This document shows, in pieces, positions 786-29,367 of a stretch of 46,204 nucleotides of DNA. The stretch comes from a virus (lineage: Duplodnaviria > Heunggongvirae > Uroviricota > Caudoviricetes), in IMG/VR virus record IMGVR_UViG_2541047747_000001; one strand, given 5' to 3'. The translations under genes and the position numbers were made by a program. Each line of letters starts with the position of its first letter. The stretch's first letter is position 1. The notes under the pieces were generated by a model. The model made no database searches, was not told where the DNA came from, and worked only from the letters and a program-made list of their open reading frames with translations.

Positions 786-1031
786 AAAGAATAAAAAAAT
801 CCCGCAGTGATCGCGGAGCTGCGGGGACAGACAAAGATTAGAGTTAAGGAGTTGTTTTTGTTACTCGGGCAAAAAACACTAACGCAGCGAAATTATACGC
901 GCCACAGTCAGTTTGTGAAAATGTGAAGATATTCAGAATTTTTATTCAGTCATGATACAGGCATCCTCCGGGGTGCCTGTTGTTTTTTGGGCATAAACAG
1001 ATTCAGACATCAGACAGGAGAGGGGGAGCGA

Positions 1032-4000
1032 GTGGGTAAAGGTGGCGGTAAGGCGCACACACCGCGCGAGGCGAAGGATAATCTCAAATCCACGCAGATG
1101 ATGAGTGTGATTGATGCGATTGGTGAGGGACCGATAGAAGGCCCGGTGAAGGGACTGCAGAGTATCCTGGTGAACAAAACCCCGCTGACGGACACGGACG
1201 GTAATCCCGTGATACACGGTGTGACCGCGGTCTGGCGTGCCGGGGAGCAGGAGCAGACACCACCGGAAGGCTTTGAGTCCTCCGGAGCTGAAACCGGACT
1301 GGGCGTGGAAGTGACGAAGGCAAAACCGGTGACGCGCACCATTACGTCCGCGAACATTGACCGCCTGCGGGTTACCTTCGGGGTGCAGTCACTGGTGCAG
1401 ACCACGTCAAAGGGCGACCGTAATCCTTCCTCTGTCCGGATTCTGATTCAGTTACAGCGTAATGGCCGCTGGGTGACGGAAAAGGATGTCACCATTAACG
1501 GCAAGACCACCTCGCAGTTCCTGGCCTCGGTGATTCTGGATAATCTGCCTCCCCGGCCCTTTAACATCCGGATGGTCAGGGAGACGGCGGACAGCACCAC
1601 GGACCAGCTGCAGAATAAGACGCTGTGGTCGTCATACACCGAAATCATCGATGTGAAACAGTGCTACCCGAACACGGCCATTGTGGGGCTGCAGGTGGAT
1701 GCGGAGCAGTTCGGCGGCCAGCAGATGACGGTGAACTACCATATCCGCGGTCGCATCATCCAGGTGCCGTCAAACTATGACCCGGAAAAACGCACGTACA
1801 GTGGTATCTGGGACGGCAGCCTGAAACCGGCATACAGCAACAACCCGGCCTGGTGTCTGTGGGACATGCTGACTCACCCGCGCTACGGCATGGGAAAACG
1901 TCTGGGGGCGGCGGATGTGGACAAGTGGGCGCTGTATGCCATCGGGCAGTACTGCGACCAGACGGTCCCGGATGGTTTCGGGGGGACCGAGCCGCGGATG
2001 ACCTTTAATGCGTACCTGGCACAACAGCGTAAGGCGTGGGACGTTCTCAGTGATTTCTGCTCTGCGATGCGCTGTATGCCGGTATGGAACGGCCAGACGC
2101 TGACGTTCGTTCAGGACCGTCCGTCGGATGTGGTGTGGCCGTACACCAACAGCGATGTGGTGGTGGATGATAACGGCGTGGGTTTCCGCTACAGCTTCAG
2201 TGCCCTGAAGGACCGGCACACGGCAGTGGAGGTGAATTACACCGACCCGCAGAACGGCTGGCAGACCTCCACGGAACTGGTGGAAGACCCGGAAGCCATA
2301 CTGCGCTACGGACGCAACCTGCTGAAGATGGACGCGTTCGGCTGTACCAGCCGCGGTCAGGCCCACCGTGCCGGGCTGTGGGTGATAAAGACCGAACTGC
2401 TGGAAACGCAGACGGTGGATTTCACGCTCGGGTCACAGGGGCTGCGTCACACACCCGGTGACATCATTGAAATCTGTGATAACGACTATGCCGTGACCAT
2501 GACCGGCGGACGTGTCCTGTCCATCGATGCCGCCAGCCGTACCCTGACGCTGGACCGGGAGGTGACACTGCCGGAGACCGGCACGGCCACTGTTAATCTG
2601 ATTAACGGCAGCGGTAAGCCGGCGAGCGTGGCCATCACCGCACACCCCGCGCCTGACCGGATACAGGTCAGCACCCTGCCGGATGGTGTGGAGACATACG
2701 GGGTGTGGGGACTCTCCCTGCCGTCACTGCGTCGTCGCCTGTTCCGCTGTGTCTCCATCCGGGAAAACACGGACGGCACGTTCGCCATCACGGCGGTGCA
2801 GCACGTACCGGAAAAAGAAGCCATTGTGGATAACGGGGCCAGCTTTGAGCCGCAGTCAGGCAGCCTGAACAGCGTTATCCCACCGGCAGTGCAGCACCTG
2901 ACGGTGGAGGTGAGTGCAGCTGACGGTCAGTATCTGGCACAGGCGAAATGGGACACGCCGCGGGTGGTGAAGGGTGTGCGCTTCAGTCTGCGTCTGACCA
3001 GCGGAAGCGGAGAAGACAGCCGTCTGGTGACCACTGCCATCACCGCAGACACGGAGCACCGTTTCAGCGGCCTGCCGCTCGGGGAATACACCCTGACGGT
3101 GCGGGCGATAAACAGCTACGGCCAGCAGGGTGAACCTGCCACCACCACCTTCCGGATTAACGCACCTGCAAAACCCGCCACCATTGAGCTGACGCCGGGG
3201 TATTTTCAGATAACGGCGGTACCGGTGCTGGCGGTGTATGACCCGACGGTGCAGTTTGAGTTCTGGTTTTCGGAAAAACGCATCACGAACACGGCACAGG
3301 TGGAAAAATCTGCCCGTTATCTGGGGACCGGCAGTCAGTGGACTGTCCAGGGCGATCGGATTAAGCCGGGGATGGATTTCTGGTTTTATGTGCGCAGTGT
3401 CAACCTGGTGGGCAAGTCTGCATTTGTGGAAGCCAGCGGGCAGGCCAGCAATGATGCAAAAGGGTATCTGGAATTTTTCCGTGGTCTGATAGATGAGACG
3501 CTGCTGGGGCAGGCACTGAAAGAGCGCATTGATGCTTCAGCGCTGCGTACGGAGGTCACGCAACTGGAAGAAGATATCCGTCAGCGGATGGACACGGATA
3601 TCGCAGAAGTGACCCGGAAAATCGGGAAGGCGGAAAACAGCCTCACGCAGCTGGTTGCGAAAAAGAATGAGGACCAGACACTGGCCATCGCGCAGGTGAG
3701 CCAGAAAGTGGACCGGGTGAGCAGTGAAATCTCACAGACTGTCAGCCAGGGGCAGTCAGAAAACGCCCGACAGATAGCACAGGTCCGCCAGTACGTGGAT
3801 AAAAAAGGGAGTGAAATTACCTCGACCACGGATAAAAAGCTGGGTGACCAGGCCGTGACCATACAGCAAATCCAGCGGGTTCAGTCAGACACGCGCAATG
3901 AGCTGAATGCCATGTATATGCTGAAGGTGCAGAAAACAAAAAACGGTATTCCCTATGTGGCCGGGATTGGTGCGGGGATTGAGGATGTTGATGGTCAGAC

Positions 4001-4724
4001 GCTGAGCAGTATTCTGCTGCAGGCTGACCGTATCGCGATGATTACCCCGGAGAATGGCAACACCACGCCGCTGTTTGTGGCGCAGGGGAATCAGCTGTTC
4101 ATGAACGACGTGTTCCTGAAGCGACTGTTTGCGGTGAGCATCACGTCATCCGGCAATCCTCCTACGTTTTCCCTGACGCCGGATGGCAGGCTGGCAGCCC
4201 GCAATGCGGATATCAGTGGAGCCATCACGGCGAATACCGGCACGCTCAATAATGTCACCATTAACGAGAACTGTGTCATCAGAGGGAAACTGTCTGCAAA
4301 CCAGATTGAAGGCGATCTCGTTAAAACAGTGGGTAAGGCTTTCCCCCGTGACTCCCGTGCACCGGAGAGGTGGCCATCAGGGACCATTACCGTCAGGGTT
4401 TATGACGATCAGCCGTTTGACCGGCAAATTGTTATTCCGGCGGTGGCATTCAGCGGTGCCAGACATGAGCGGGAGAATAACGATATTTATTCGTCATGCC
4501 GCCTGATAGTACGGAAAAACGGTGCTGAAATTTATAACCGTACCGCGCTGGATAATACGCTGGTTTACAGTGGTGTTATTGATATGCCTGCTGGTCGCGG
4601 CCACATGACGCTGGAGTTTTCTGTATCAGCATGGTGGGTAAATGGCTGGTATCCCACAGCAAGTATCAGCGATTTGCTGGTTGTTGTGATGAAGAAAGCC
4701 ACTGCAGGCATCACGATTAGCTGA
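1032..4724 (+). CDS. J: tail tip host specificity protein J (central tail fibre)
   Basis: Long ORF; [22 protein letters not shown]-terminus and many conserved blocks shared with lambda J; likely GTG start at 1032 after an AGGAG-like RBS; ORF track starts at 987. Confidence 0.9.
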
Positions 4725-4791: not shown

Positions 4792-5391
4792 ATGCGTAAA
4801 TTATGTGCTGTTATTCTGTCCGCAGTAGTCTGGCTGGTTGCCGCTGGTACGCCAGCGAGCGCAGCAGAGCATCAGTCCACACTAAGCGCCGGGTATCTTC
4901 AGACCCACACTGATATGCCAGGCAGCGATAATCTGAACGGGATTAACGTGAAATACCGTTATGAGTTTACGGACGCGCTGGGGCTGATTACGTCCTTCAG
5001 TTATGCCAATGCTGAGGATGAGCAAAAAACGCACTACAGCGATACCCGCTGGCATGAAGATTCCGTGCGTAACCGCTGGTTCAGCGTGATGGCGGGGCCA
5101 TCTGTACGCGTGAATGAATGGTTCAGTGCTTATGCGATGGCAGGTGTGGCTTACAGCCGTGTGTCGACGTTCTCCGGGGATTATCTCCGCGTAACTGACA
5201 ACAAGGGGAAAACGCACGATGTGCTGACCGGAAGTGATGACGATCGCCACAGCAACACGTCTCTGGCGTGGGGGGCTGGCGTGCAGTTTAACCCGACCGA
5301 ATCCGTGGCCATTGACCTTGCTTATGAAGGTTCCGGCAGTGGTGACTGGCGCACTGACGGTTTCATCGTAGGTGTCGGTTATAAATTCTGA
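4792..5391 (+). CDS. lom: Lom-like outer membrane protein (Ail/Lom family)
   Basis: 199 aa with signal peptide; C-terminal YEGSGSGDWRTDGFIVGVGYKF matches lambda Lom as recalled. Confidence 0.85.
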   Translation: MRKLCAVILSAVVWLVAAGTPASAAEHQSTLSAGYLQTHTDMPGSDNLNGINVKYRYEFTDALGLITSFSYANAEDEQKTHYSDTRWHEDSVRNRWFSVMAGPSVRVNEWFSAYAMAGVAYSRVSTFSGDYLRVTDNKGKTHDVLTGSDDDRHSNTSLAWGAGVQFNPTESVAIDLAYEGSGSGDWRTDGFIVGVGYKF

Positions 5392-5417
5392 TTAGCCAGG
5401 TAACACAGTGTTATGAC

Positions 5418-5445
5418 AGCCCGCCGGTTCAGGCGGGCTTTTTTG
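5418..5445 (+). terminator. rho-independent terminator after lom
   Basis: AGCCCGCC-ggttca-GGCGGGCT stem-loop followed by TTTTTT. Confidence 0.65.
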
Positions 5446-5455
5446 TGGAGTGGAT

Positions 5456-8400
5456 ATGGCAGCAGTAAAAATCTCAGGTGTGCTGAAAGATGGTGCGGGA
5501 AAACCAATACAGAACTGCACTATTCAACTGAAGGCAAAGCGTAACAGCACCACGGTACTGGTGAACACGGTGGCTTCTGAAAATCCGGATGAAGCCGGAC
5601 GTTACAGCATGGATGTTGAGTATGGCCAGTACAGCGTCACCCTGCTGGTTGAAGGTTTTCCGCCTTCACATGCCGGGACCATTACCGTCTATGAAGGTTC
5701 CAGACCAGGTACGCTGAATGATTTTCTCGGTGCCATGACGGAAGATGATGTCATGCCGGAGGCACTGCGCCGCTTTGAGCAGATGGTGGAAGAGGTGTCA
5801 CGTAACGCCTCCGCGGTTGCACAGAATACGGCAGCCGCGAAAAAATCAGCCAGCGATGCCAGTGCATCAGCCAGCGAGGCGGCAACTCATGCAACCGATG
5901 CTGCAGCCTCAGCACGTGCCGCCAGCACGTCAGCCGGACAGGCCGCGTCGTCGGCTCAGTCAGCGTCTTCCAGCGCAGGAACGGCATCGACAAAGGCCCG
6001 TGAAGCAGCAAAAAGTGCTGCTGCTGCAGAGTCATCAAAAAGCGCGGCAGCTACCAGCGCCAGTGCCGCGAAAACGTCAGAAACGAATGCCGCAGCATCA
6101 CAAAAATCGGCAGCCACTTCTGCATCCACAGCGACCACGAAAGCGTCAGAAGCTGCCACCTCGGCACGGGGTGCGGCGGCCTCAAAAGAGGCAGCGAAAT
6201 CTTCAGAAACGAATGCATCATCAAGTGCCAGTAGTGCAGCTTCCTCGGCAACGGCGGCAGGAAATTCCGCGAAGGCGGCAAAAACGTCCGAGACGAACGC
6301 CAGGTCTTCTGAAACAGCAGCGGGACAGAGCGCCTCAGCTGCGGCAGGTTCAAAAACAGCGGCTGCATTATCTGCCAGTGCCGCGTCAACAAGTGCCGGG
6401 CAGGCCTCAGCCAGTGCCACCGCCGCCGGAAAATCGGCAGAAAGCGCCGCATCATCCGCTTCAACAGCCACAACGAAGGCTGGCAAAGCCACTGAGCAAG
6501 CCACTGCAGCAGCGAGGTCTGCTTCTGCAGCAAAAACCTCTGAAACAAATGCAAAGACTTCAGCAGACAATGCTGCTTCCTCTAAGGCGGCAGCCGCATC
6601 GTCAGCCAGTTCAGCGGCGTCATCGGCATCATCTGCGTCTGCTTCAAAAGATGAGGCGACCAGACAAGCGTCAGCAGCGAAAGGTAGTGCCACGACAGCA
6701 ACAACGAAAGCATCAGAGGCGGCAGGCAGTGCGACGGCGGCATCTCAGAGCAAAGTTGCTGCTGAATCCGCGGCAACGCGTGCCGAAACAGCGGCAAAAC
6801 GGGCAGAGGATATTGCATCCGCCGTGGGGCTTGAGGATGCGAGCACGACGAAAAAGGGGATAGTACAGCTCAGCAGTGCAACAAACAGCACCAGTGAAAA
6901 GCTGGCGGCAACGCCAAAGGCAGTTAAAACTGTTAAAGATAGTTCAGTTCAAAAAACTGGCGACACAATGGGAGGGCAGTTAAAAATCAGCACGATAAAT
7001 GCTCTTCGAATATTCAACCAAGCCTTTGGCCTTATTTTTAGGCGTTCCGAAGATTATCTTCATCTTATTCCGACTAATGAAGGGGAGGGGGAAAATGGAG
7101 ACATCGGTTCATTAAGACCATTCTCTATAAACTTAAGATCAGGGTTGGTGTCCATCGGTAATGGACTAAAAGTTGGTGGTAGTGTTACTGGTAATTTGAC
7201 CGGAAACGCAGATACTGCGACCAAGATCAAGACAGCACGTAAGATTGGGGGCGTGGCATTTGATGGATCGGCAGATATCAACTTGCCTGGAGTCAACGCT
7301 ACCGGTAATCAAAACACTACAGGTAATGCTGCGACCGCCACGAAACTTCAGGCAGCCAGAACGATTAACGGTGTGTCATTTGATGGTAGTGCAAATATCA
7401 CATTGACCCCTTCAAATATTGGGGCATTGGCATTAACTGGAGGGACTCTTTCAGGTGGTTTAACTGCTGCTGGTGAGGTTATTTCAAGGTCAGCAAATGG
7501 TCTGCGTATTGCCTATGGCAACTATGGATTCTTTATCCGAAATGATGGATCAAACACATATTTTATGTTGACAGATTCGGGTAACAGTCTTGGTACGCAC
7601 AATAGCTTAAGGCCGTTTATAATTAGTAACCATACTGGCAATGTTACAATTGCAACTAAATTAAACGCGAGTGGTGGTATCACTGGATCTTTATCGGGTA
7701 ATGCAAGCACAGCAACCAAATTGCAAACTGCAAGGACAATTAACGGCGTAAAATTTGACGGCTCGGCAAATATTGAAGCGTTTCCGCCAGGTGTTCCGCT
7801 GCCGTGGCCATCAGATACACCACCTGCAGGTTATGCGATCATGCAGGGGCAGACGTTTGATAAGGCAGCATATCCGAAACTGGCTATTGCCTATCCTTCA
7901 GGTGTTATTCCAGATATGCGCGGCTGGACAATCAAGGGCAAACCCGCCAGTGGCCGGGCCGTATTGTCTCAGGAACAGGACGGCATAAAATCGCACACCC
8001 ACAGCGCCAGCGCATCCAGTACGGATTTGGGGACGAAAACCACATCGTCGTTTGATTACGGCACTAAATCCACGAATAACACCGGGGCGCATACGCACAG
8101 TCTGAGTGGCTCTACGGGGTCTGCCGGTGTTCATACTCATGGTAATGGTATTCGTTGGCCAGGAGGCGGCGGTTCTGCGTTAGCATTTTATGATGGCGGT
8201 GGGTTCACTTATGTCCAGAATTCACAGTATCAAGTAAGCCCGGAGACTTCTTCCTATAGATCGTATTATCAACGTATTCAGACACAGTCAGCAGGTGCTC
8301 ATACCCACTCGCTGTCTGGTACTGCAGCAAGTTCTGGCGCACATGCACATACTGTAGGTATTGGTGCGCATACGCACTCCGTTGCGATTGGTTCACATGG

Positions 8401-8485
8401 ACACACCATCACCGTTAACGCTGCGGGTAACGCGGAAAACACCGTCAAAAACATCGCATTTAACTATATTGTGAGGCTTGCATAA
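5456..8485 (+). CDS. stf: side tail fibre protein Stf
   Basis: N-terminus [27 protein letters not shown] and C-terminus [18 protein letters not shown] match lambda Stf as recalled; long Ala/Ser-rich KTSETNA repeats; GGAG RBS before the ATG at 5456. Confidence 0.9.
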
Positions 8486-9069
8486 TGGCATTCAGAATGA
8501 GTGAACAAGCACGGACCATAAAAATTTATAATCTGCTGGCCGGAACTAATGAATTTATTGGTGAAGGTGACGCATATATTCCGCCTCATACAGGTCTGCC
8601 AGCAAACAGTACCGATATTGCACCACCAGATATTCCTGCTGGCTTTGTGGCTGTTTTCAACAGTGATGAGGCATCGTGGCATCTCGTTGAAGACCATCGG
8701 GGTAAAACGGTTTATGACGTAGCGTCAGGGGACGAGTTATTTATTTCTGAACTCGGTCCGTTACCGGAAAATGTTACCTGGTTATCGCCGGAAGGGGAGT
8801 TTCAGAAGTGGAACGGCACAGCCTGGGTGAAGGATACGGAAGCAGAAAAACTGTTCCGGATCCGGGAGGCGGAAGAAACAAAAAACAGCCTGATGCAGGT
8901 AGCCAGCGAGCATATTGCGCCGCTTCAGGATGCTGCAGATCTGGAAATTGCAACAGAGGAAGAAATCTCGTTGCTGGAAGCATGGAAAAAGTATCGGGTA
9001 TTGCTGAACCGTGTTGATACGTCAACTGCACCTGATATTGAGTGGCCTACGAACCCTGTCAGGGAGTAA
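8485..9069 (+). CDS. tfa: tail fibre assembly protein Tfa
   Basis: 194 aa, [42 protein letters not shown] nearly identical to lambda Tfa as recalled; start overlaps stf stop (TAATG). Confidence 0.9.
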
Positions 9070-9083
9070 TCATTGGGATTATG

Positions 9084-9116
9084 CCGCAGCACGTCTTAAG
9101 CAAGAACGTGCTGCGG
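9084..9116. terminator. perfect 11-bp inverted repeat between convergent tfa and dinI-like gene (possible bidirectional or factor-dependent terminator)
   Basis: CCGCAGCACGT-cttaagcaaga-ACGTGCTGCGG; no flanking U-tract on either strand. Confidence 0.4.
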
Positions 9117-9184
9117 TTGGATGGTGAACTTTCGATAGTGCGAGTATTGAATGATTTCCAGCCGTTACCGATTTTACGTGTTAA

Positions 9185-9433
9185 TTAGTGAACAAACCAC
9201 TCGTCAGCAGACTCCCAGGTATCTTTCAGAGTTTCCTGAACAAAAGTTTTAGCTGAATCTTTATCGGCGGTGCGCGTAACAGAAAGGCCATCGTTGCTGG
9301 TAGCTTTTACGATCACCTCTACATCGTCATAACGTTTACTGATGCGTCGGGTTAATTCTTCCTTTAACGCATCCACAGCACCGGTTGGCATTTTAGTCAT
9401 TTTTTCTTTGGCTATGCAGATTTCAATACGCAT
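9185..9433 (-). CDS. dinI: DinI-like DNA damage-inducible protein
   Basis: 82 aa; MRIEI...AVDAL..EL.RRI...[10 protein letters not shown] pattern typical of the DinI family; two LexA boxes directly upstream. Confidence 0.8.
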
Positions 9434-9448
9434 AAAAGTCCCTCTACA

Positions 9449-9492
9449 CTGTGTTTGTATACAGTATCATTTTTAACTGTATGGATAAACAG
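9449..9492 (-). promoter_or_regulatory. two LexA (SOS) boxes overlapping the dinI-like promoter
   Basis: CTGTgtttgtatACAG (9449-9464) and CTGTatggataaACAG (9477-9492) fit CTGT-N8-ACAG; minus-strand -35 TTGACA (rc of 9495-9500) with 17-bp spacer to TAAAAA. Confidence 0.75.
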
Positions 9493-9509
9493 TGTCAAGG
9501 GTGAGGGAA

Positions 9510-9790
9510 AGTGATTTTTTGGGGCATGCATGGGGCAAAAATATTTGTTGTGGGGCATTTTGGGGCATGATTGGGACACTTTGTTACATATGAACTTTGC
9601 CGATTTTTATATGACATGGAAATACAACGCTTTGATTCTTCTAAATAAAAAATATGCTCTTGGGCGTTCTTTAGTGATTTTTAAAAATTCCGTATCACGC
9701 AGTTAACATGACGGGTATTAAGGATTAACTTACTGATTTTAATAAGCCTCTGATGTCACTTTGGTGACTATGGGGCATCATTGGGACATA
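9510..9790. other. putative attP region with integrase arm-type repeats
   Basis: Four TGGGGCA repeats at 9520-9567 and an 18-bp direct repeat TGGGGCAT(G/C)ATTGGGACA at 9561-9578 and 9771-9788, next to the int 3' end; core crossover site not identified. Confidence 0.45.
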
Positions 9791-11038
9791 ATCTGTCAGC
9801 TTCTGATTCAGCATTGCGATCTGTTCTGCATTGCTGTCAGTCATCCATGCTCCGTATACATTGAATACCATCTGGGCACTTGCATGGCCCATCTGGCTGG
9901 CAATGAAGCTTGGGTTTGCTCCGGCAGATAATGACCAGCACGCATAAGTGTGTCGTGACTGGTATGCCTTTCGATGCCTGATCCCTGCACGCTTAATGGC
10001 TGTTTCCCATGAGTCACCTACAGAATCGACTTTGTAGACAAAACCTACCTGTTCGCTTTTTCTAACCACTTGAGGGTTAAACACGAAAGTACATTCATGG
10101 TTCACTGAACGTCCATATTCACGTAGTTGCACCTTGATGTTGTACTGCTTACCCAGTCTTGTCATTTCAGCCTGATTTTTCAGGACACTGATAGCGGGCT
10201 GGATAAGGTGCACAACCCTGTTTGTGCTTGCTTCAGTTTTCGGTAGAGTGAACTCACCAAGTTTCGTATAATTGCGCCTGATGGTAATTGTTCCTGCCTT
10301 CAGATCGATATCTTCCCAGGCCAGGGAGACCAGTTCACCGTGACGCATTCCTGTGTACACAGCCAATGACCACAGGTTTTTCGTCTGCTGATGTCGGCAA
10401 GCATCTATCAGGCGAATAAATTCGTCACGAGTTAGCGGATCTGGCTCTGCCCTGGCTCTTTTAAGAGGCTTAATTCCCTGGAAGGGATTTGCTTCTAAGT
10501 AACCGTGATCTGCAGCAAACTGAAACATTCCAGCGATTGTCGTCATGTAATAATTTACAGTAACGACGCTCCGTCCTTTTGCTGCTGCTTTGTTTTTCGT
10601 TGAATTCTGATACCCGGTCAGCAAATCTTTCCTGATATACAGCAATTCCTCTTTGGTTACCGATGACACCAGTCTACTGCCTCCAATTTTCGGAACCATC
10701 GTTCTTGCAACGGATTCATAGCGATTGAATGCATTTGCAGAGATTTCCATTCGTTTCAGATCCAGCCACTTTTCTTCAAGTTCCTTCACCGTAATTTCTT
10801 TTTTACTTACCCCAAAAGCCTGAAGGTTGGGGGAGTCAGGGAACTGTGCAGCATAATCAAAGCTTCCTGTGCGGATGGCAAAACATACTGATGTCCGCAG
10901 TTCCCCGGCGATCTTCCTGTTCTTGGCAGTGTCAGGGACACCAAGATTTTCCCTGACACGTTTACCTTTAAAATTAAACCAGATGCGTAATGTGCCGCCG
11001 TGGTTTTCGACGCCTGTTGGATATTTGACTTTATCCAT
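9725..11038 (-). CDS. int: tyrosine-type site-specific integrase with N-terminal arm-binding domain
   Basis: 437 aa; C-terminal catalytic region with R..HxxR..Y context (SRHTYACWSL, GHASAQMVFNVY); position next to xis and attP. Confidence 0.85.
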   Translation of the reverse strand: MDKVKYPTGVENHGGTLRIWFNFKGKRVRENLGVPDTAKNRKIAGELRTSVCFAIRTGSFDYAAQFPDSPNLQAFGVSKKEITVKELEEKWLDLKRMEISANAFNRYESVARTMVPKIGGSRLVSSVTKEELLYIRKDLLTGYQNSTKNKAAAKGRSVVTVNYYMTTIAGMFQFAADHGYLEANPFQGIKPLKRARAEPDPLTRDEFIRLIDACRHQQTKNLWSLAVYTGMRHGELVSLAWEDIDLKAGTITIRRNYTKLGEFTLPKTEASTNRVVHLIQPAISVLKNQAEMTRLGKQYNIKVQLREYGRSVNHECTFVFNPQVVRKSEQVGFVYKVDSVGDSWETAIKRAGIRHRKAYQSRHTYACWSLSAGANPSFIASQMGHASAQMVFNVYGAWMTDSNAEQIAMLNQKLTDYVPMMPHSHQSDIRGLLKSVS

Positions 11039-24558: not shown

Positions 24559-25599
24559 GTGAACATTCAGGCAGTAGACATTTTTTGTGGTGCGGGGGGC
24601 TTAACTTTTGGGCTAAAAAAAGCCGGGATTGAGGTTTCTCATGGTATTGATATTGATGAATCCTGCCGTTTTGCTATTGAGAGCAATAATCCTTTAACGC
24701 AGTTCATTAATCAGTCAGTTACAGAACTGCAATCCTGCGATGTGTCTGCTATGTTCAAGGAAGGAAATATTAGATTGCTTGCTGGATGTGCTCCTTGCCA
24801 ACCGTTTTCCAAGTATCGTAATCCAAATAGCCGTAAAGACGATACAAAGTGGCGTTTGTTATATGAGTTTCAAAGGCTTGTAAGTGATGTAATGCCAGAG
24901 CTTGTGACGATGGAGAATGTTCCTCAACTTAGAAACCATAAGGTTTTTGAAGGGTTTGTTAGTGCATTAAAGACTCTTGGATATCATTTGTGGTACGACG
25001 TTGTAAGATGTTCTGAGTATGGCTTACCTCAAAATAGACGTAGATTAATTCTAATTGGTTCCCAATTGGGGCCGATCAGCCTTGATCAAAAAAAAGTTAG
25101 CCGTAAAGTTACTGTTAAGGATGCTATTGGTAGGTTGCCAAAAGTAGGGGCAGGTGAGAAGCTGGAAAGCGATCCCTTGCATCGTTCGCCTAAATTGATG
25201 GATATCAATCTTAAACGAATCATGCATTCTTTACCTGGTGGTACGTGGGATGACTGGCCTGAAGAAATTAGAGCAGACTGTCATAAAAAGAATTCAGGTG
25301 CTACCTATAAAAGCGTTTATGGACGGATGGTTTGGGACGATACTAGCCCTACGATAACTACCCAGTGTTATGGATATGGAAATGGACGATTTGGCCATCC
25401 TGAGCAAAATCGCGCCATAACTTTGCGTGAAGCTGCGATTTTGCAATCCTTTCCAATGGATTATAAATTCCTTGACAAGGAGACGCCTTTTTCATTCCAA
25501 AAATTGGGGACAATGATTGGAAATGCTGTTCCCCCTATAATTGGTCAGATAATAGGGGAAACATTTATCAGACATGTTGAGGGGATAAATACCCGTTAG
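24559..25599 (+). CDS. DNA (cytosine-5)-methyltransferase
   Basis: Motif I FCGAGG, motif IV PCQPFS, ENV and QNRRR motifs; GTG start with GGAG RBS. Confidence 0.85.
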   Translation: MNIQAVDIFCGAGGLTFGLKKAGIEVSHGIDIDESCRFAIESNNPLTQFINQSVTELQSCDVSAMFKEGNIRLLAGCAPCQPFSKYRNPNSRKDDTKWRLLYEFQRLVSDVMPELVTMENVPQLRNHKVFEGFVSALKTLGYHLWYDVVRCSEYGLPQNRRRLILIGSQLGPISLDQKKVSRKVTVKDAIGRLPKVGAGEKLESDPLHRSPKLMDINLKRIMHSLPGGTWDDWPEEIRADCHKKNSGATYKSVYGRMVWDDTSPTITTQCYGYGNGRFGHPEQNRAITLREAAILQSFPMDYKFLDKETPFSFQKLGTMIGNAVPPIIGQIIGETFIRHVEGINTR

Positions 25600-26257
25600 A
25601 GGTAATATAATTTTCTGTTGAGTTGATTAATAAACGCAAATATAGATCAATTCTTTCTGACCTCGATTTGACTTCTTCTAAAGGGTCTATTTGACCTTTT
25701 TTAGAAAAGCTGGTACTTCCATGTGCCAGCTCATTTCTGATATCTTTAAGTAAATCTAAGTCAACACCATTTCTACACTCTGGTGAGTTTGCAACAGTTA
25801 TTCCGTAAGCTTGTGTTATTTTGTGCAATACAGACTTGCAAACATTACCATTGAATTCTTTACGTATGTTTAATGAGGCTGAAATGATCCTTTTAGATAT
25901 ATCGGAACCAATTTTTTGATAAAGAGATTTTCCCGATTCATTATCTGAAATGATACGGTGCAAGATATTTACTTGGAATTTCTCCCTGAGTGATGCGTAA
26001 TTTACTTCATTATCTTGCAAATGGTCATAAATTGACTCAATGCATCCTCTGGCAGTGTTTTCAACCTGATTGTACAGCATCATGTGCACGGATGATTTTA
26101 AAATGTTAACCCTAAGGGTATTTGATTCTATTTCATCTTTATGCGTTTGCTGATCTAACTGCTGAGTCTGAGCCTCTAAAGATGACGCAAGAGAAAGCAA
26201 TTCCATAATATCTCTTGCTCTTTCTTCGTATTCATCTCTTAAATCAATCAAACTCAT
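25568..26257 (-). CDS. HEPN-domain protein (putative RNase effector), second gene of DUF262-HEPN cassette
   Basis: 229 aa; C-terminal R-x4-H motif RNELAHG; start 2 bp after the DUF262 gene stop; 3' end overlaps the convergent C5-methyltransferase by 32 bp. Confidence 0.65.
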   Translation of the reverse strand: MSLIDLRDEYEERARDIMELLSLASSLEAQTQQLDQQTHKDEIESNTLRVNILKSSVHMMLYNQVENTARGCIESIYDHLQDNEVNYASLREKFQVNILHRIISDNESGKSLYQKIGSDISKRIISASLNIRKEFNGNVCKSVLHKITQAYGITVANSPECRNGVDLDLLKDIRNELAHGSTSFSKKGQIDPLEEVKSRSERIDLYLRLLINSTENYITSNGYLSPQHV

Positions 26258-26259
26258 AG

Positions 26260-27417
26260 TTACATTCCTAATAATTTATCTTTGACATAAAATATTCTGT
26301 TTTTGAGTTGGCTGGTGTTGTTGGCACTATCAGCAGTAACTATGGTTTCAAATTCCTCCCCAAACAGCCAGTCTCCTACAGGAATAACCGGAGCCTGTAG
26401 ATGTGGATTGGCTTTTAAGGCAAGAGCAGTTCCCACTGCTATGGCTTCGTATCTAGCACGGGGGGTGGTTTTGCTTGTTGGTGTCTTTTTAAACCCCATA
26501 GGGAAATGAGCATCTACAAAAGCAAGCATGCTTTCAAAATCATGTTTAAATTTGTCTACATCTTGTTGTGTGACCCTTTCGGCCTGAACATTAAGATAAT
26601 TGTCAATAAAAGGAGCGACATAACCCTTATAATTTTCTAAATCATTTAAGTATGCAAAAAATCTCAAAACTAACTCACGATGATCGCCATTCGAACGTTT
26701 CCGATCTGATAATGGAGCTAGACTAGCGAAAAGTGGATTTGTTGAGCAAGGAGTCACAACATCCCTATAGAAAATTGAAGTGGCCGCATCTGAACCATGT
26801 CTAACCTCCATCGCTTCCAGTCTCTTAACACCTGAATTTATTCTTTCGAATAAATCTCTTCTATGCTGCTCCTCAACATCACCTTTCAATTCAATAAATC
26901 TTAGTGATGCCCTTAAAAATCGCCTCTGGCGGCTAGCCAAAAGATCTGAAAATTTGAAGCCCTCTAAACTTTTGAGTTCTTTTAAGTCTTTCAATTCAAA
27001 CTGATTGTTCCAAAAGTAGTAAATTGAGCGAATCCTTTGTGAACCGTCAATAATTTCTACACGACCATCCAACTCAGGATCTTCATTAAATACGTCGGAG
27101 ATGTAGAGGTACGGGATTGGAAAATCTAATAATATACTTTCGATGAATCGAGAGGCTGTTTTGATATCCCATTTGTAATCGCGTTGATAATCAGGAATAA
27201 AAAGTTCGTTTTTGTCAGTTTCAAGATTATTGCCATACTTTTGTACAATTAATTCAACGGTCCATTCACGTACGTTGTATCCAATATTTCTCTGAGCAAG
27301 CCTAATCTCGTTGTCGGCAGAAGTGACCAAGGCTGCAATTTCAGCTTTTTTTCTATTTTTCGCGTTTTCATCTTGAATCTGAGCAAGCTCTTCTTTGAGT
27401 TCTTTGAGTGTGGTCAT
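26260..27417 (-). CDS. DUF262 (ParB-like nuclease/NTPase fold) domain protein
   Basis: 385 aa; signature blocks FIPDYQRDYKWD and IIDGSQR; AAGGAA RBS before the start. Confidence 0.7.
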   Translation of the reverse strand: MTTLKELKEELAQIQDENAKNRKKAEIAALVTSADNEIRLAQRNIGYNVREWTVELIVQKYGNNLETDKNELFIPDYQRDYKWDIKTASRFIESILLDFPIPYLYISDVFNEDPELDGRVEIIDGSQRIRSIYYFWNNQFELKDLKELKSLEGFKFSDLLASRQRRFLRASLRFIELKGDVEEQHRRDLFERINSGVKRLEAMEVRHGSDAATSIFYRDVVTPCSTNPLFASLAPLSDRKRSNGDHRELVLRFFAYLNDLENYKGYVAPFIDNYLNVQAERVTQQDVDKFKHDFESMLAFVDAHFPMGFKKTPTSKTTPRARYEAIAVGTALALKANPHLQAPVIPVGDWLFGEEFETIVTADSANNTSQLKNRIFYVKDKLLGM

Positions 27418-28018: not shown

Positions 28019-29068
28019 ATGCTTAATACTGTAAAAATATCCAGTTGTGAGTTAATCAACGCCGACTGCCTGGAATTTATCCGGTCGTTACCCGAAAATT
28101 CTGTTGACCTGATAGTCACGGACCCGCCGTACTTTAAAGTGAAGCCTGAGGGCTGGGATAACCAGTGGAAGGGCGACGATGATTACCTGAAGTGGCTGGA
28201 CCAGTGTCTGGCGCAGTTCTGGCGGGTGCTGAAACCTGCCGGAAGTCTTTACCTGTTCTGTGGTCATCGCCTGGCATCTGATATCGAAATCATGATGCGT
28301 GAACGCTTCAGTGTGCTGAACCATATTATCTGGGCGAAGCCGTCCGGACGCTGGAACGGATGCAACAAGGAAAGCCTGCGGGCGTATTTCCCCGCCACAG
28401 AGCGCATTCTGTTCGCGGAACATTATCAGGGGCCGTATCGTCCGAAAGATGCCGGGTATGCGGCGAAGGGCAGTGCACTGAAACAGCATGTGATGGCCCC
28501 GCTGATTTCTTACTTTCGTGATGCGCGCGCGGCCCTGGGGATAACGGCAAAACAGATTGCAGATGTCACAGGAAAGAAAAACATGGTGTCGCACTGGTTC
28601 AGTGCCAGTCAGTGGCAGCTACCGAACGAAAGCGATTATCTGAAATTACAGTCGCTGTTTGCCCGGGTGGCAGAAGAGAAACATCAGCGCGGTGAACTGG
28701 AAAAGCCCCACCACCAGCTGGTGGATACGTATACGTCACTGAACCGGCAGTATGTGGAGCTGCAGAGTGAATATAAGCATCTGCGGCGGTATTTTGGTGT
28801 GACGGCGCAGGTGCCGTACACGGATGTATGGACACATAAACCGGTGCAGTTCTATCCCGGGAAACATCCGTGCGAAAAACCGGCAGAAATGCTGCAGCAG
28901 ATAATCAGCGCAAGCAGTCGTCCGGGTGACCTGGTTGCAGATTTTTTTATGGGCTCAGGTTCAACGGTAAAAGCGGCACTGGCGCTCGGGCGTCGTGCGA
29001 TTGGCGTTGAACTGGAGACCGGACGTTTTGAGCAGACAGTCAGGGAAGTTCAGGATTTAATCGTTTGA
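28019..29068 (+). CDS. DNA N6-adenine methyltransferase (DPPY motif)
   Basis: 349 aa; motif IV LIVTDPPY and SAM-binding region FFMGSGST. Confidence 0.8.
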   Translation: MLNTVKISSCELINADCLEFIRSLPENSVDLIVTDPPYFKVKPEGWDNQWKGDDDYLKWLDQCLAQFWRVLKPAGSLYLFCGHRLASDIEIMMRERFSVLNHIIWAKPSGRWNGCNKESLRAYFPATERILFAEHYQGPYRPKDAGYAAKGSALKQHVMAPLISYFRDARAALGITAKQIADVTGKKNMVSHWFSASQWQLPNESDYLKLQSLFARVAEEKHQRGELEKPHHQLVDTYTSLNRQYVELQSEYKHLRRYFGVTAQVPYTDVWTHKPVQFYPGKHPCEKPAEMLQQIISASSRPGDLVADFFMGSGSTVKAALALGRRAIGVELETGRFEQTVREVQDLIV

Positions 29069-29117: not shown

Positions 29118-29193
29118 GGCCCTTTAGCTCAGTGGTGAGAGCGAGCGACTCATAATCGCCAGGTCGCTGGTTCAAATCCAGCAAGGGCCACCA
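29118..29193 (+). tRNA. tRNA with CAT anticodon (Ile2/lysidine type, ileX-like, or Met)
   Basis: Manual fold: 7-bp acceptor stem GGCCCTT/AAGGGCC, D-stem GCTC/GAGC, anticodon loop CTCATAA, T-loop TTCAAAT, encoded CCA. Confidence 0.85.
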
Positions 29194-29200
29194 TCACATA

Positions 29201-29277
29201 CCGCCATTAGCTCATCAGGAAAGAGCGCCAGCCTTCGAAGCTGGTTGCGCGGAGTTCGGGTCCCCGAAGGCGGTCCA
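29201..29277 (+). tRNA. tRNA-Arg (anticodon TCG)
   Basis: Manual fold: anticodon stem CCAGC/GCTGG, loop CTTCGAA, encoded CCA; one mismatch each in acceptor and T stems. Confidence 0.65.
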
Positions 29278-29290
29278 TTATCTGTATCCT

Positions 29291-29367
29291 GCGTTGTTAG
29301 CTCAGCCGGACAGAGCAATTGCCTTCTAAGCAATCGGTCACTGGTTCGAATCCAGTACAACGCGCCA
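29291..29367 (+). tRNA. tRNA-Arg (anticodon TCT)
   Basis: Manual fold: perfect acceptor stem GCGTTGT/ACAACGC, anticodon loop CTTCTAA, T-loop TTCGAAT, encoded CCA. Confidence 0.85.

Follow-up and report, generated by a model that had tools for sequence, protein, structure and literature searches.

A mosaic lambda-type side tail fibre gene with an AT-rich predicted shaft segment related to phage-plasmid fibre genes

The side tail fibre locus

The 46,204-nt stretch analyzed here (the window) is a Caudoviricetes prophage, IMG/VR record IMGVR_UViG_2541047747_000001, whose side tail fibre gene, stf, contains an AT-rich central block. The gene is a single open reading frame (ORF) on the plus strand at 5450..8485 that encodes 1011 amino acids; the RefSeq start is the ATG at 5456, six bases inside the ORF start, and a copy 100% identical to it is present in E. 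coli GABEEC132 (WP_021522531.1, annotated as a "prophage tail fiber N-terminal domain-containing protein"). The gene order, J (987..4724), lom (4792..5391), stf and tfa (8485..9069), is that of lambda. The lom gene matches the Ail/Lom family (PF06316, Ail_Lom; E=1e-128), and tfa, also on the plus strand, encodes a tail fibre assembly chaperone (PF02413, Caudo_TAP; E=2e-44) that is 94% identical to lambda Tfa and 98% identical to that of phage 204576.

Along Stf, Pfam recognizes a phage_tail_N tail-attachment domain at amino acids 5-137 (5462..5860; PF08400, E=4e-68; matched over amino acids 5-97 by Protein Data Bank (PDB) entry 9e7m), a Gp34_trimer domain at amino acids 623-725, a Collar domain at amino acids 781-828 (7790-7933; PF07484), and then HxH-type Phage_fiber repeats; these and all other features of stf described below lie on the plus strand. 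The N-terminal domain is at least 89% identical in 60 of 60 full-length IMG/VR relatives and is followed by an Ala/Ser-rich region of KTSETNA-type direct repeats (5861..6907) with homology to lambda and phage 204576. Downstream of the central block, the collar leads into a gp37-type His-rich needle and tip of the phage 204576 type (7954..8485) with HxH repeats and a match to PDB entry 2xgf. On the strength of its place in a lambdoid tail module, its PF08400 anchor, and its gp37-like collar, needle, and tip, we assign the predicted stf product to the lambda-type side tail fibres, with Tfa-dependent trimer formation and receptor binding predicted only.

An earlier note on this DNA, made from the sequence alone, held that the flanks of the central block track lambda Stf closely, and this is correct to a degree. 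Common to the window and lambda (Ur-lambda) are the J-lom-stf-tfa locus, the PF08400 anchor, the Ala/Ser rod, a shared motif, and the gp37-like collar and His-rich needle. The N-terminal match is moderate (84% at the DNA level over 5450-6366), however, and the C-terminal domain, with its different tip, reaches only 65% identity to lambda at the protein level. Other lambdoid alleles come much closer to the window than lambda does. In place of the helical 'SPALTGTPTAPT...LNELAAALG' segment of lambda Stf (amino acids 386-528, 143 amino acids), the window has a beta-prism and repeat cassette of about 285 amino acids, and it further differs in having ~100 amino acids more of Ala/Ser repeats, a P2-like collar, another tip insert, and a deletion of two needle repeats.

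The additional Ala/Ser-rich, KTSETNA-type repeats amount to ~305 bp relative to lambda stf and lie at 6367-6671; rod repeat number varies among alleles. A peptide repeat within the same region occurs three times, at 6071, 6281, and 6533. The region also contains alternative-frame and antisense ORFs of 372 and 245 amino acids, at 5745..6863 (plus strand) and 5956..6693 (minus strand), respectively. Lambda has an annotated antisense "orf206b" at this location, and these ORFs are probably by-products of the GCN-rich repeats.

A central tract shared with phage-plasmid fibre genes

In 200-bp windows, the GC content of stf is 0.57-0.64 over 5800-6900, 0.39-0.46 over 6900-7800, and 0.54-0.55 over 7800-8200, so the AT-rich block that the earlier note had placed at 6900-7800 is real and composition across the gene is non-uniform. 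Similarity to the stf genes of lambda, phage 204576, and PhiR30_1 stops at 6927-6928 and restarts at 7802, or at 7778 in the case of lambda, with identity in ungapped alignments collapsing within a few bases at either end. The span between these break points measures ~430 bp in lambda and ~1260 bp in phage 204576 and PhiR30_1.

The closest relative of the block is the tail-fibre gene of Cyrano/CMS-2020a-type phage-plasmids, from which the tract at 6908..7725 (T2) differs at 18 of 818 bp (97.8% identity). We inspected two carriers from PLSDB closely: NZ_CP070135.1, a 108-kb, non-mobilizable replicon of rep_cluster_488, and NZ_CP146657.1, an IncC/rep_cluster_488 cointegrate that is typed as conjugative. 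Some two dozen other PLSDB records contain a match to the block of at least 90% identity. In the two loci inspected, the block lies inside a tail-fibre gene encoding 1140-1254 amino acids, with a J-like gene adjoining. Over its tail region, NZ_CP070135.1 shares 95-96% identity with Escherichia phages CMS-2020a and Cyrano and 78% with Salmonella phage SSU5, and from their sequences both replicons are classified as SSU5-like phage-plasmids.

Window positions 6012-7824 align contiguously to the phage-plasmid fibre gene but with very uneven identity. It ranges from 76 to 94% in the Ala/Ser rod, stands at 65% over 6812-6911, rises to 96-99% in each 100-bp bin of 6912-7711, and falls back to 69% at 7712-7811. 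A mismatch map sets the tract edges at 6908 and 7725, outside of which about one base in three is mismatched. Beyond the block and the rod the two genes are unlike: the phage-plasmid fibre has another N-terminal anchor and continues after the block with 4-8 more repeats, a further globular domain, and an unrelated C-terminus, without a collar, gp37 needle, or lambda-type tfa. The fibre gene of NZ_CP146657.1 (4540-8304) includes an expandable array of near-identical 40-amino acid repeats, two copies more than in NZ_CP070135.1.

Among 50,697 phage records searched with megablast and blastn, we found no near match to the block, with just 70-75% patches to P1, P7, Mu, P2, and Cyrano, and no sequenced lambdoid phage among these records carries it; the donor-type lineage surfaced solely in the plasmid collection. 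The block is itself sub-modular, as one relative, P0027, is 92% identical over amino acids 507-661 and then diverges. The 97.8% tract and its sharp edges strongly support horizontal exchange of 6908-7725.

The AT-rich segment coincides exactly with T2, and its base composition bears on whether any exchange needs to be invoked, as the dip might instead arise from amino acid composition in a vertically inherited gene, an Asn/Thr/Ile/Gly-rich shaft contrasting with an Ala/Ser-rich rod. Amino acid composition does explain a good deal of the raw step in GC, given that second codon positions have a GC of 0.78 in the Ala/Ser region versus 0.51 in the block. Nor is the block extreme for the window, where 17% of 873-bp windows have a GC of 0.44 or less. 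However, GC at third codon positions (GC3) also drops, and the dip is therefore not solely a matter of composition: T1 (5450-6907) has a GC of 0.571 (GC3 0.467), T2 has 0.429 (GC3 0.335), and T3 (7726-7953) has 0.518, and T2 differs from the rest of the gene both at all positions (Fisher test, p=2.7e-9) and at third codon positions (p=3.3e-4).

Allelic variation speaks to the same question. From the 60 full-length IMG/VR Stf relatives with the N-terminal domain we took the 19 with both junction anchors, which with phage 204576 and the window make 21 alleles. Allele identity was assigned by per-segment queries and junctions by anchor BLAST; whole-protein high-scoring segment pairs spanned modules, and a motif regular expression missed many alleles. 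The 21 alleles contain 8 unrelated cassette types of 182-416 amino acids, and lambda supplies a ninth. In all 21, the central cassette has a GC of 0.43-0.51 against 0.58-0.62 upstream, the window allele being the lowest, and the dip at this position is thus a family-wide feature. That every allele dips is what inheritance without exchange would lead one to expect, but eight or nine unrelated cassettes between the same junctions, together with identity steps at the abrupt edges of a tract shared with a gene of an unrelated replicon, contradict it, and we consider this explanation scarcely tenable.

The rest of stf has yet other nearest relatives. These change abruptly at 6908, 7725-7730, and 7946-7954, and the gene is read as a chain of at least four tracts; full-length collinear identity to one known Stf, which the earlier note had named as grounds for abandoning its proposal, was not seen. 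T1, comprising the lambdoid anchor and Ala/Ser rod, is 95-100% identical to two IMG/VR alleles over most of 6063-6860. T3 (7726..7953), the distal half of fibre repeat 3 plus the tail collar, is nearly identical to P2-like fibre genes, with 3 mismatches in 224 bp (98.7%) to the P2-like myophage vB_EcoM-613R2 over 7730-7953 and ~97% identity to Peduovirus P24A7b, but just 70-84% to lambdoid alleles, and it would represent a third donor lineage within stf. T4 has 3 mismatches in 531 bp (99.4%) to the lambdoid phage 204576 over 7955-8485, and near-identity to this phage (99-100%) runs on through tfa to 9069.

The left border falls in a 21-bp stretch of ATPKAVK codons (6908..6928) common to lambdoid stf and the phage-plasmid fibre gene, and the T2/T3 border (~7725-7730) falls inside fibre repeat 3 (7712..7774). 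In lambda, the corresponding residues are just after K385 on the left (MDETNR at 388-393, ending in R393) and S528 on the right (GAGENS at 523-528). Functional lambda STF chimeras have been built by fusion at R393 or S528 (PMC11338833), and the natural junctions coincide with these engineers' fusion points.

We also weighed whether, instead of homologous recombination, a site-specific invertase of the Cin/Gin/Min type made the exchange by acting on an invertible segment, as found in P1, Mu, P7, and p15B. Among the closest matches to the block in phage proteins are P7 Sv' (70% identical over 68% of the block) and P1 S, both in invertible C-segments, and De Paepe 2014 names invertases as the probable agents behind old transfers of stf (PMC3945230). 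Against this, no inverted repeats of 16 nt or more occur within 5300-9800, no invertase ORF lies near stf-tfa, where a DinI-like gene and a tyrosine integrase gene come next, and the crossovers lie in shared sequence, as homologous exchange predicts. Invertase-mediated exchange is accordingly judged highly improbable, and an inversion system at the locus itself, which would call for inverted crossover sites and an adjacent serine invertase, was rejected.

Shaft domains, fibre repeats, and the distal tip

In order, T2 and the end of repeat 3 encode a globular domain 1, fibre repeats 1 and 2, a TPSNIGAL helix, a globular domain 2, and repeat 3. The repeats are three copies of A[TS]K[IL]xxARxIxGVxFDGSA[ND]I located by regular expression at amino acids 590-610 (7217-7279), 630-650 (7337-7399), and 755-775 (7712-7774). 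A DNA direct-repeat search missed these peptide repeats, two comparable copies being ~63% identical in DNA, and the second repeat peptide as quoted in the earlier note departs slightly from the actual sequence.

Domain 1 (amino acids 504-580; 6959..7189) and domain 2 (amino acids 663-745; 7436..7684) are 42% identical to each other. BLASTP aligns domain 1 with 55% identity to T4 gp37 570-638, which lies midway along the distal half-fibre, and with 32% identity to gp34 1039-1114; its resemblance to the gp34-type module comes through these BLASTP matches alone and not through the PF21446 profile. Domain 2, by contrast, overlaps a Gp34_trimer match (PF21446, E=1.5e-27) that scores 96.8 bits against a gathering cutoff of 27 over amino acids 129-232 of the block. 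It aligns to Mu S 268-350 (PDB entry 5yvq) with E=1e-25 and most aligned residues identical, and to T4 gp34 997-1121 in full-length numbering (9x3r; also 4uxe and 5nxf), with 47% identity over 1014-1112 by BLASTP. In the gp34 structure, residues 1014-1047 and 1105-1128 form a triple beta-helix, and this helix is interspersed with the beta-prism "triangular" domains P3 and P4 (PMC5537660). The match range of domain 2 overlaps P4 as described there, and domain 2 would therefore correspond to the P4 shaft knob.

An AlphaFold2 monomer model (mean predicted local distance difference test score, pLDDT, 72) contains two five-stranded sheets, one of them in domain 1, and three beta-hairpins at the repeats, and its top PDB matches in Foldseek are 5yvq and 4uxe/4uxg/5nxf, with template modeling (TM) scores of just 0.24-0.27. 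Low TM scores are to be expected when a single chain of an intertwined trimer is compared. With these scores and only moderate model confidence, it is mainly sequence homology that supports the fold assignment. As a whole, the block is closest to fibre segments of phage-plasmids, P1/P7 S, and Mu S. PF03406 (Phage_fiber_2), a precomputed annotation of close relatives, gave no score on the block even at E<=10. From these homologies, the predicted architecture of the block is that of a fibre shaft with two beta-prism domains and three repeats.

The description of the repeats as T-even-like is imprecise. Neither a regular expression nor BLASTP finds the ATKLxxARxIxGVxFDGSA repeats in T4 gp34 or gp37, but they do occur in fibres of P1/P7, phage-plasmids, 9g/JenK1, Goslar, and cyanophage P-TIM68; it is the two globular domains between the repeats that match T4. 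T4 (gp34 P4, 4UXE and 5NXF; gp37, 2XGF) thus resembles the window in both domains and in the C-terminal 234 amino acids, which are homologous to gp37 785-1026, whereas in T4 these parts are spread over separate proteins and the tip insert differs.

The earlier note proposed that the central block is a horizontally exchanged receptor-binding module. The exchange is borne out by the near-identical phage-plasmid tract with its sharp edges, but receptor binding is not, as the block is internal and its homologues are shaft parts. A role in host range has some appeal, since no other part of stf diverges as much from lambda and host range is the usual reason for swapping fibre genes. In some tailspikes, beta-prism "triangular" domains can bind sugars. 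Granell 2017 draws a comparison between gp34 P3/P4 and the triangular domains of tailspikes (PMC5537660), a point in favor of such a role. Nevertheless, the block occupies amino acids 487-759 of 1011 rather than the distal end, with a full gp37-type collar, needle, and tip after it, and the segments homologous to it in T4 gp34, in gp37 (570-638), and in Mu S (268-350) are parts of shafts. The phage-plasmid fibre, too, runs ~450-560 amino acids beyond the block to a quite different C-terminal domain.

It is the distal part of Stf that resembles known receptor-binding structures. Amino acids 746-1011 align to the receptor-binding tip of T4 gp37 785-1026 (2xgf; E=1.2e-79), with alignment breaking down just around amino acids 900-947. 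The C-terminus of lambda Stf, comprising a collar, needle, and OmpC-binding domain, can functionally stand in for the portion of gp37 that recognizes the receptor (PMC7291167, citing Montag 1989). With foreign fibre ends, lambda particles were redirected to lipopolysaccharide, K1, K5, and KL106 surfaces (Brödel et al. 2024; PMC11338833). These engineered chimeras retarget by replacing sequence downstream of R393 or S528, and because fusions at S528 do so, lambda STF upstream of S528 acts as a scaffold.

Within the gp37-like needle, 8141-8290 is a second, smaller replaced block. It encodes a variable tip insert (amino acids 898-947) that cannot be aligned to lambda, PhiR30_1, or T4 gp37. Five alleles with three other cassette types carry this insert at 92-98% identity, and the 416-amino acid cassette is found both with the window's tip insert and with at least one other tip; since these pairings vary, cassette and tip assort independently. 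That the same tip pairs with three other cassettes is a further argument against placing receptor choice in the block, and we regard a receptor-binding, host-range function of the block as improbable. The tip insert is instead the probable receptor-contact region and a likelier host-range determinant than the central block, so that for host-range prediction here, 8141-8290 and tfa are the segment to examine. More generally, receptor binding need not reside where a fibre gene is most divergent and AT-rich, and a tempting mis-annotation is corrected.

Taken together, these observations point with good confidence to the AT-rich block being a shaft (spacer) cassette that was exchanged by homologous recombination at short linker motifs and came from, or is shared with, an SSU5-like phage-plasmid fibre gene. 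The left crossover would have occurred in the 21-bp ATPKAVK-coding stretch common to all partners, the T2/T3 crossover inside the repeated fibre motif, in the 5' half of repeat 3, and the third in the conserved collar-to-needle stretch. T2 would thereby bring beta-prism 1, repeats 1 and 2, beta-prism 2, and the first half of repeat 3, and T3 the rest of repeat 3 and the collar. The most likely route of T2 into, or out of, the lambdoid gene is homologous recombination of the relaxed kind, assisted by a phage recombinase, in an E. coli cell that contained both elements. Experiments have demonstrated Red-beta/Rad52-like "relaxed" recombination between lambda stf-tfa and diverged copies in prophages, with frequent intragenic exchanges of ~100 bp (PMC3945230). 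Judging from its homology, position, and assortment, the cassette would set fibre length, stiffness, and knob pattern between rod and tip, and receptor choice would fall to the C-terminal gp37-like tip, chiefly the insert, folded with help from Tfa.

Several points weigh against the shaft-cassette explanation or narrow it. The phage-plasmid comparison rests on two loci, and T2 diverges by 2.2% from both plasmids examined, so neither is the actual donor and either direction of transfer is compatible with the data; GC content is uninformative as to direction, the cassette being richer in AT than its flanks in the one host as in the other. The "parents" of the tracts are nearest database relatives, not demonstrated ancestors. 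The structural model is a monomer of an obligate trimer, with a pLDDT of 72 and low global TM, and the beta-prism knobs may have a lateral sugar-binding or host-range role.

A wider version of the shaft-cassette explanation would have lambdoid prophages, SSU5-like phage-plasmids, and P2-like phages of E. coli share one pool of shaft cassettes exchanged at fixed linkers, with the shaft tuning host range indirectly. The linkers would be ATPKAVK, the GNAxTATKLQ repeat, and PxPWPSD, and tuning would depend on how long the fibre is or how far it reaches across O-antigen and capsule, or on beta-prism knobs that bind glycans weakly and laterally. We regard this as rather doubtful; if it were true, selection on the cassette, and not hitch-hiking, would account for the 8% of E. 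coli genomes that have the allele.

Distribution of the allele and the wider prophage

The whole allele is present at 98.8-100% identity in 423 of 5426 complete E. coli genomes, and a large protein database holds many fragments of it. An assembly artefact was rejected, given the same allele in the 423 complete genomes. Tail-fibre mosaicism among lambda, P2, P1, Mu, and T4 was documented in 1989-1994 (Haggard-Ljungquist 1992; Sandmeier 1992, 1994; as cited in PMC3945230), and the mosaic stf described here, already in RefSeq under WP_021522531.1, is ordinary, well-documented mosaicism. It adds little biology that is new and serves chiefly as a worked example, in which crossover points are placed at nucleotide level in a four-parent fibre gene, one partner of which is a phage-plasmid.

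The fibres of Mu (S), P1/P7 (S), and P2 (H) show the same evolutionary mode, segment shuffling between unrelated phages, and share pieces with the window, Mu S 268-350 being close to domain 2 and P2-like H 97-99% identical to the collar tract. Unlike the window, which has no inverted repeats or invertase at this locus, these phages are myoviruses, and P1, Mu, and P7 carry the variable part in an invertible segment.

The prophage as a whole is a hybrid, its integrase and early region (9700-31000) sharing ~92% identity with phiP27 and PhiR49_2 and its tail module resembling that of lambda. Three tRNA genes (Met-CAT, Arg-TCG, and Arg-TCT) lie at 29118-29367, just upstream of the lysis genes, which is the stx position in Stx phages; no stx-sized ORF follows them. 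On the minus strand at 25568..27417, adjacent HEPN (PF18737) and GmrSD_N/DUF262 (PF03235) genes adjoin an N6/N4 DNA methylase gene (28019..29068), and this pair looks like a prophage-borne anti-phage defence cassette.

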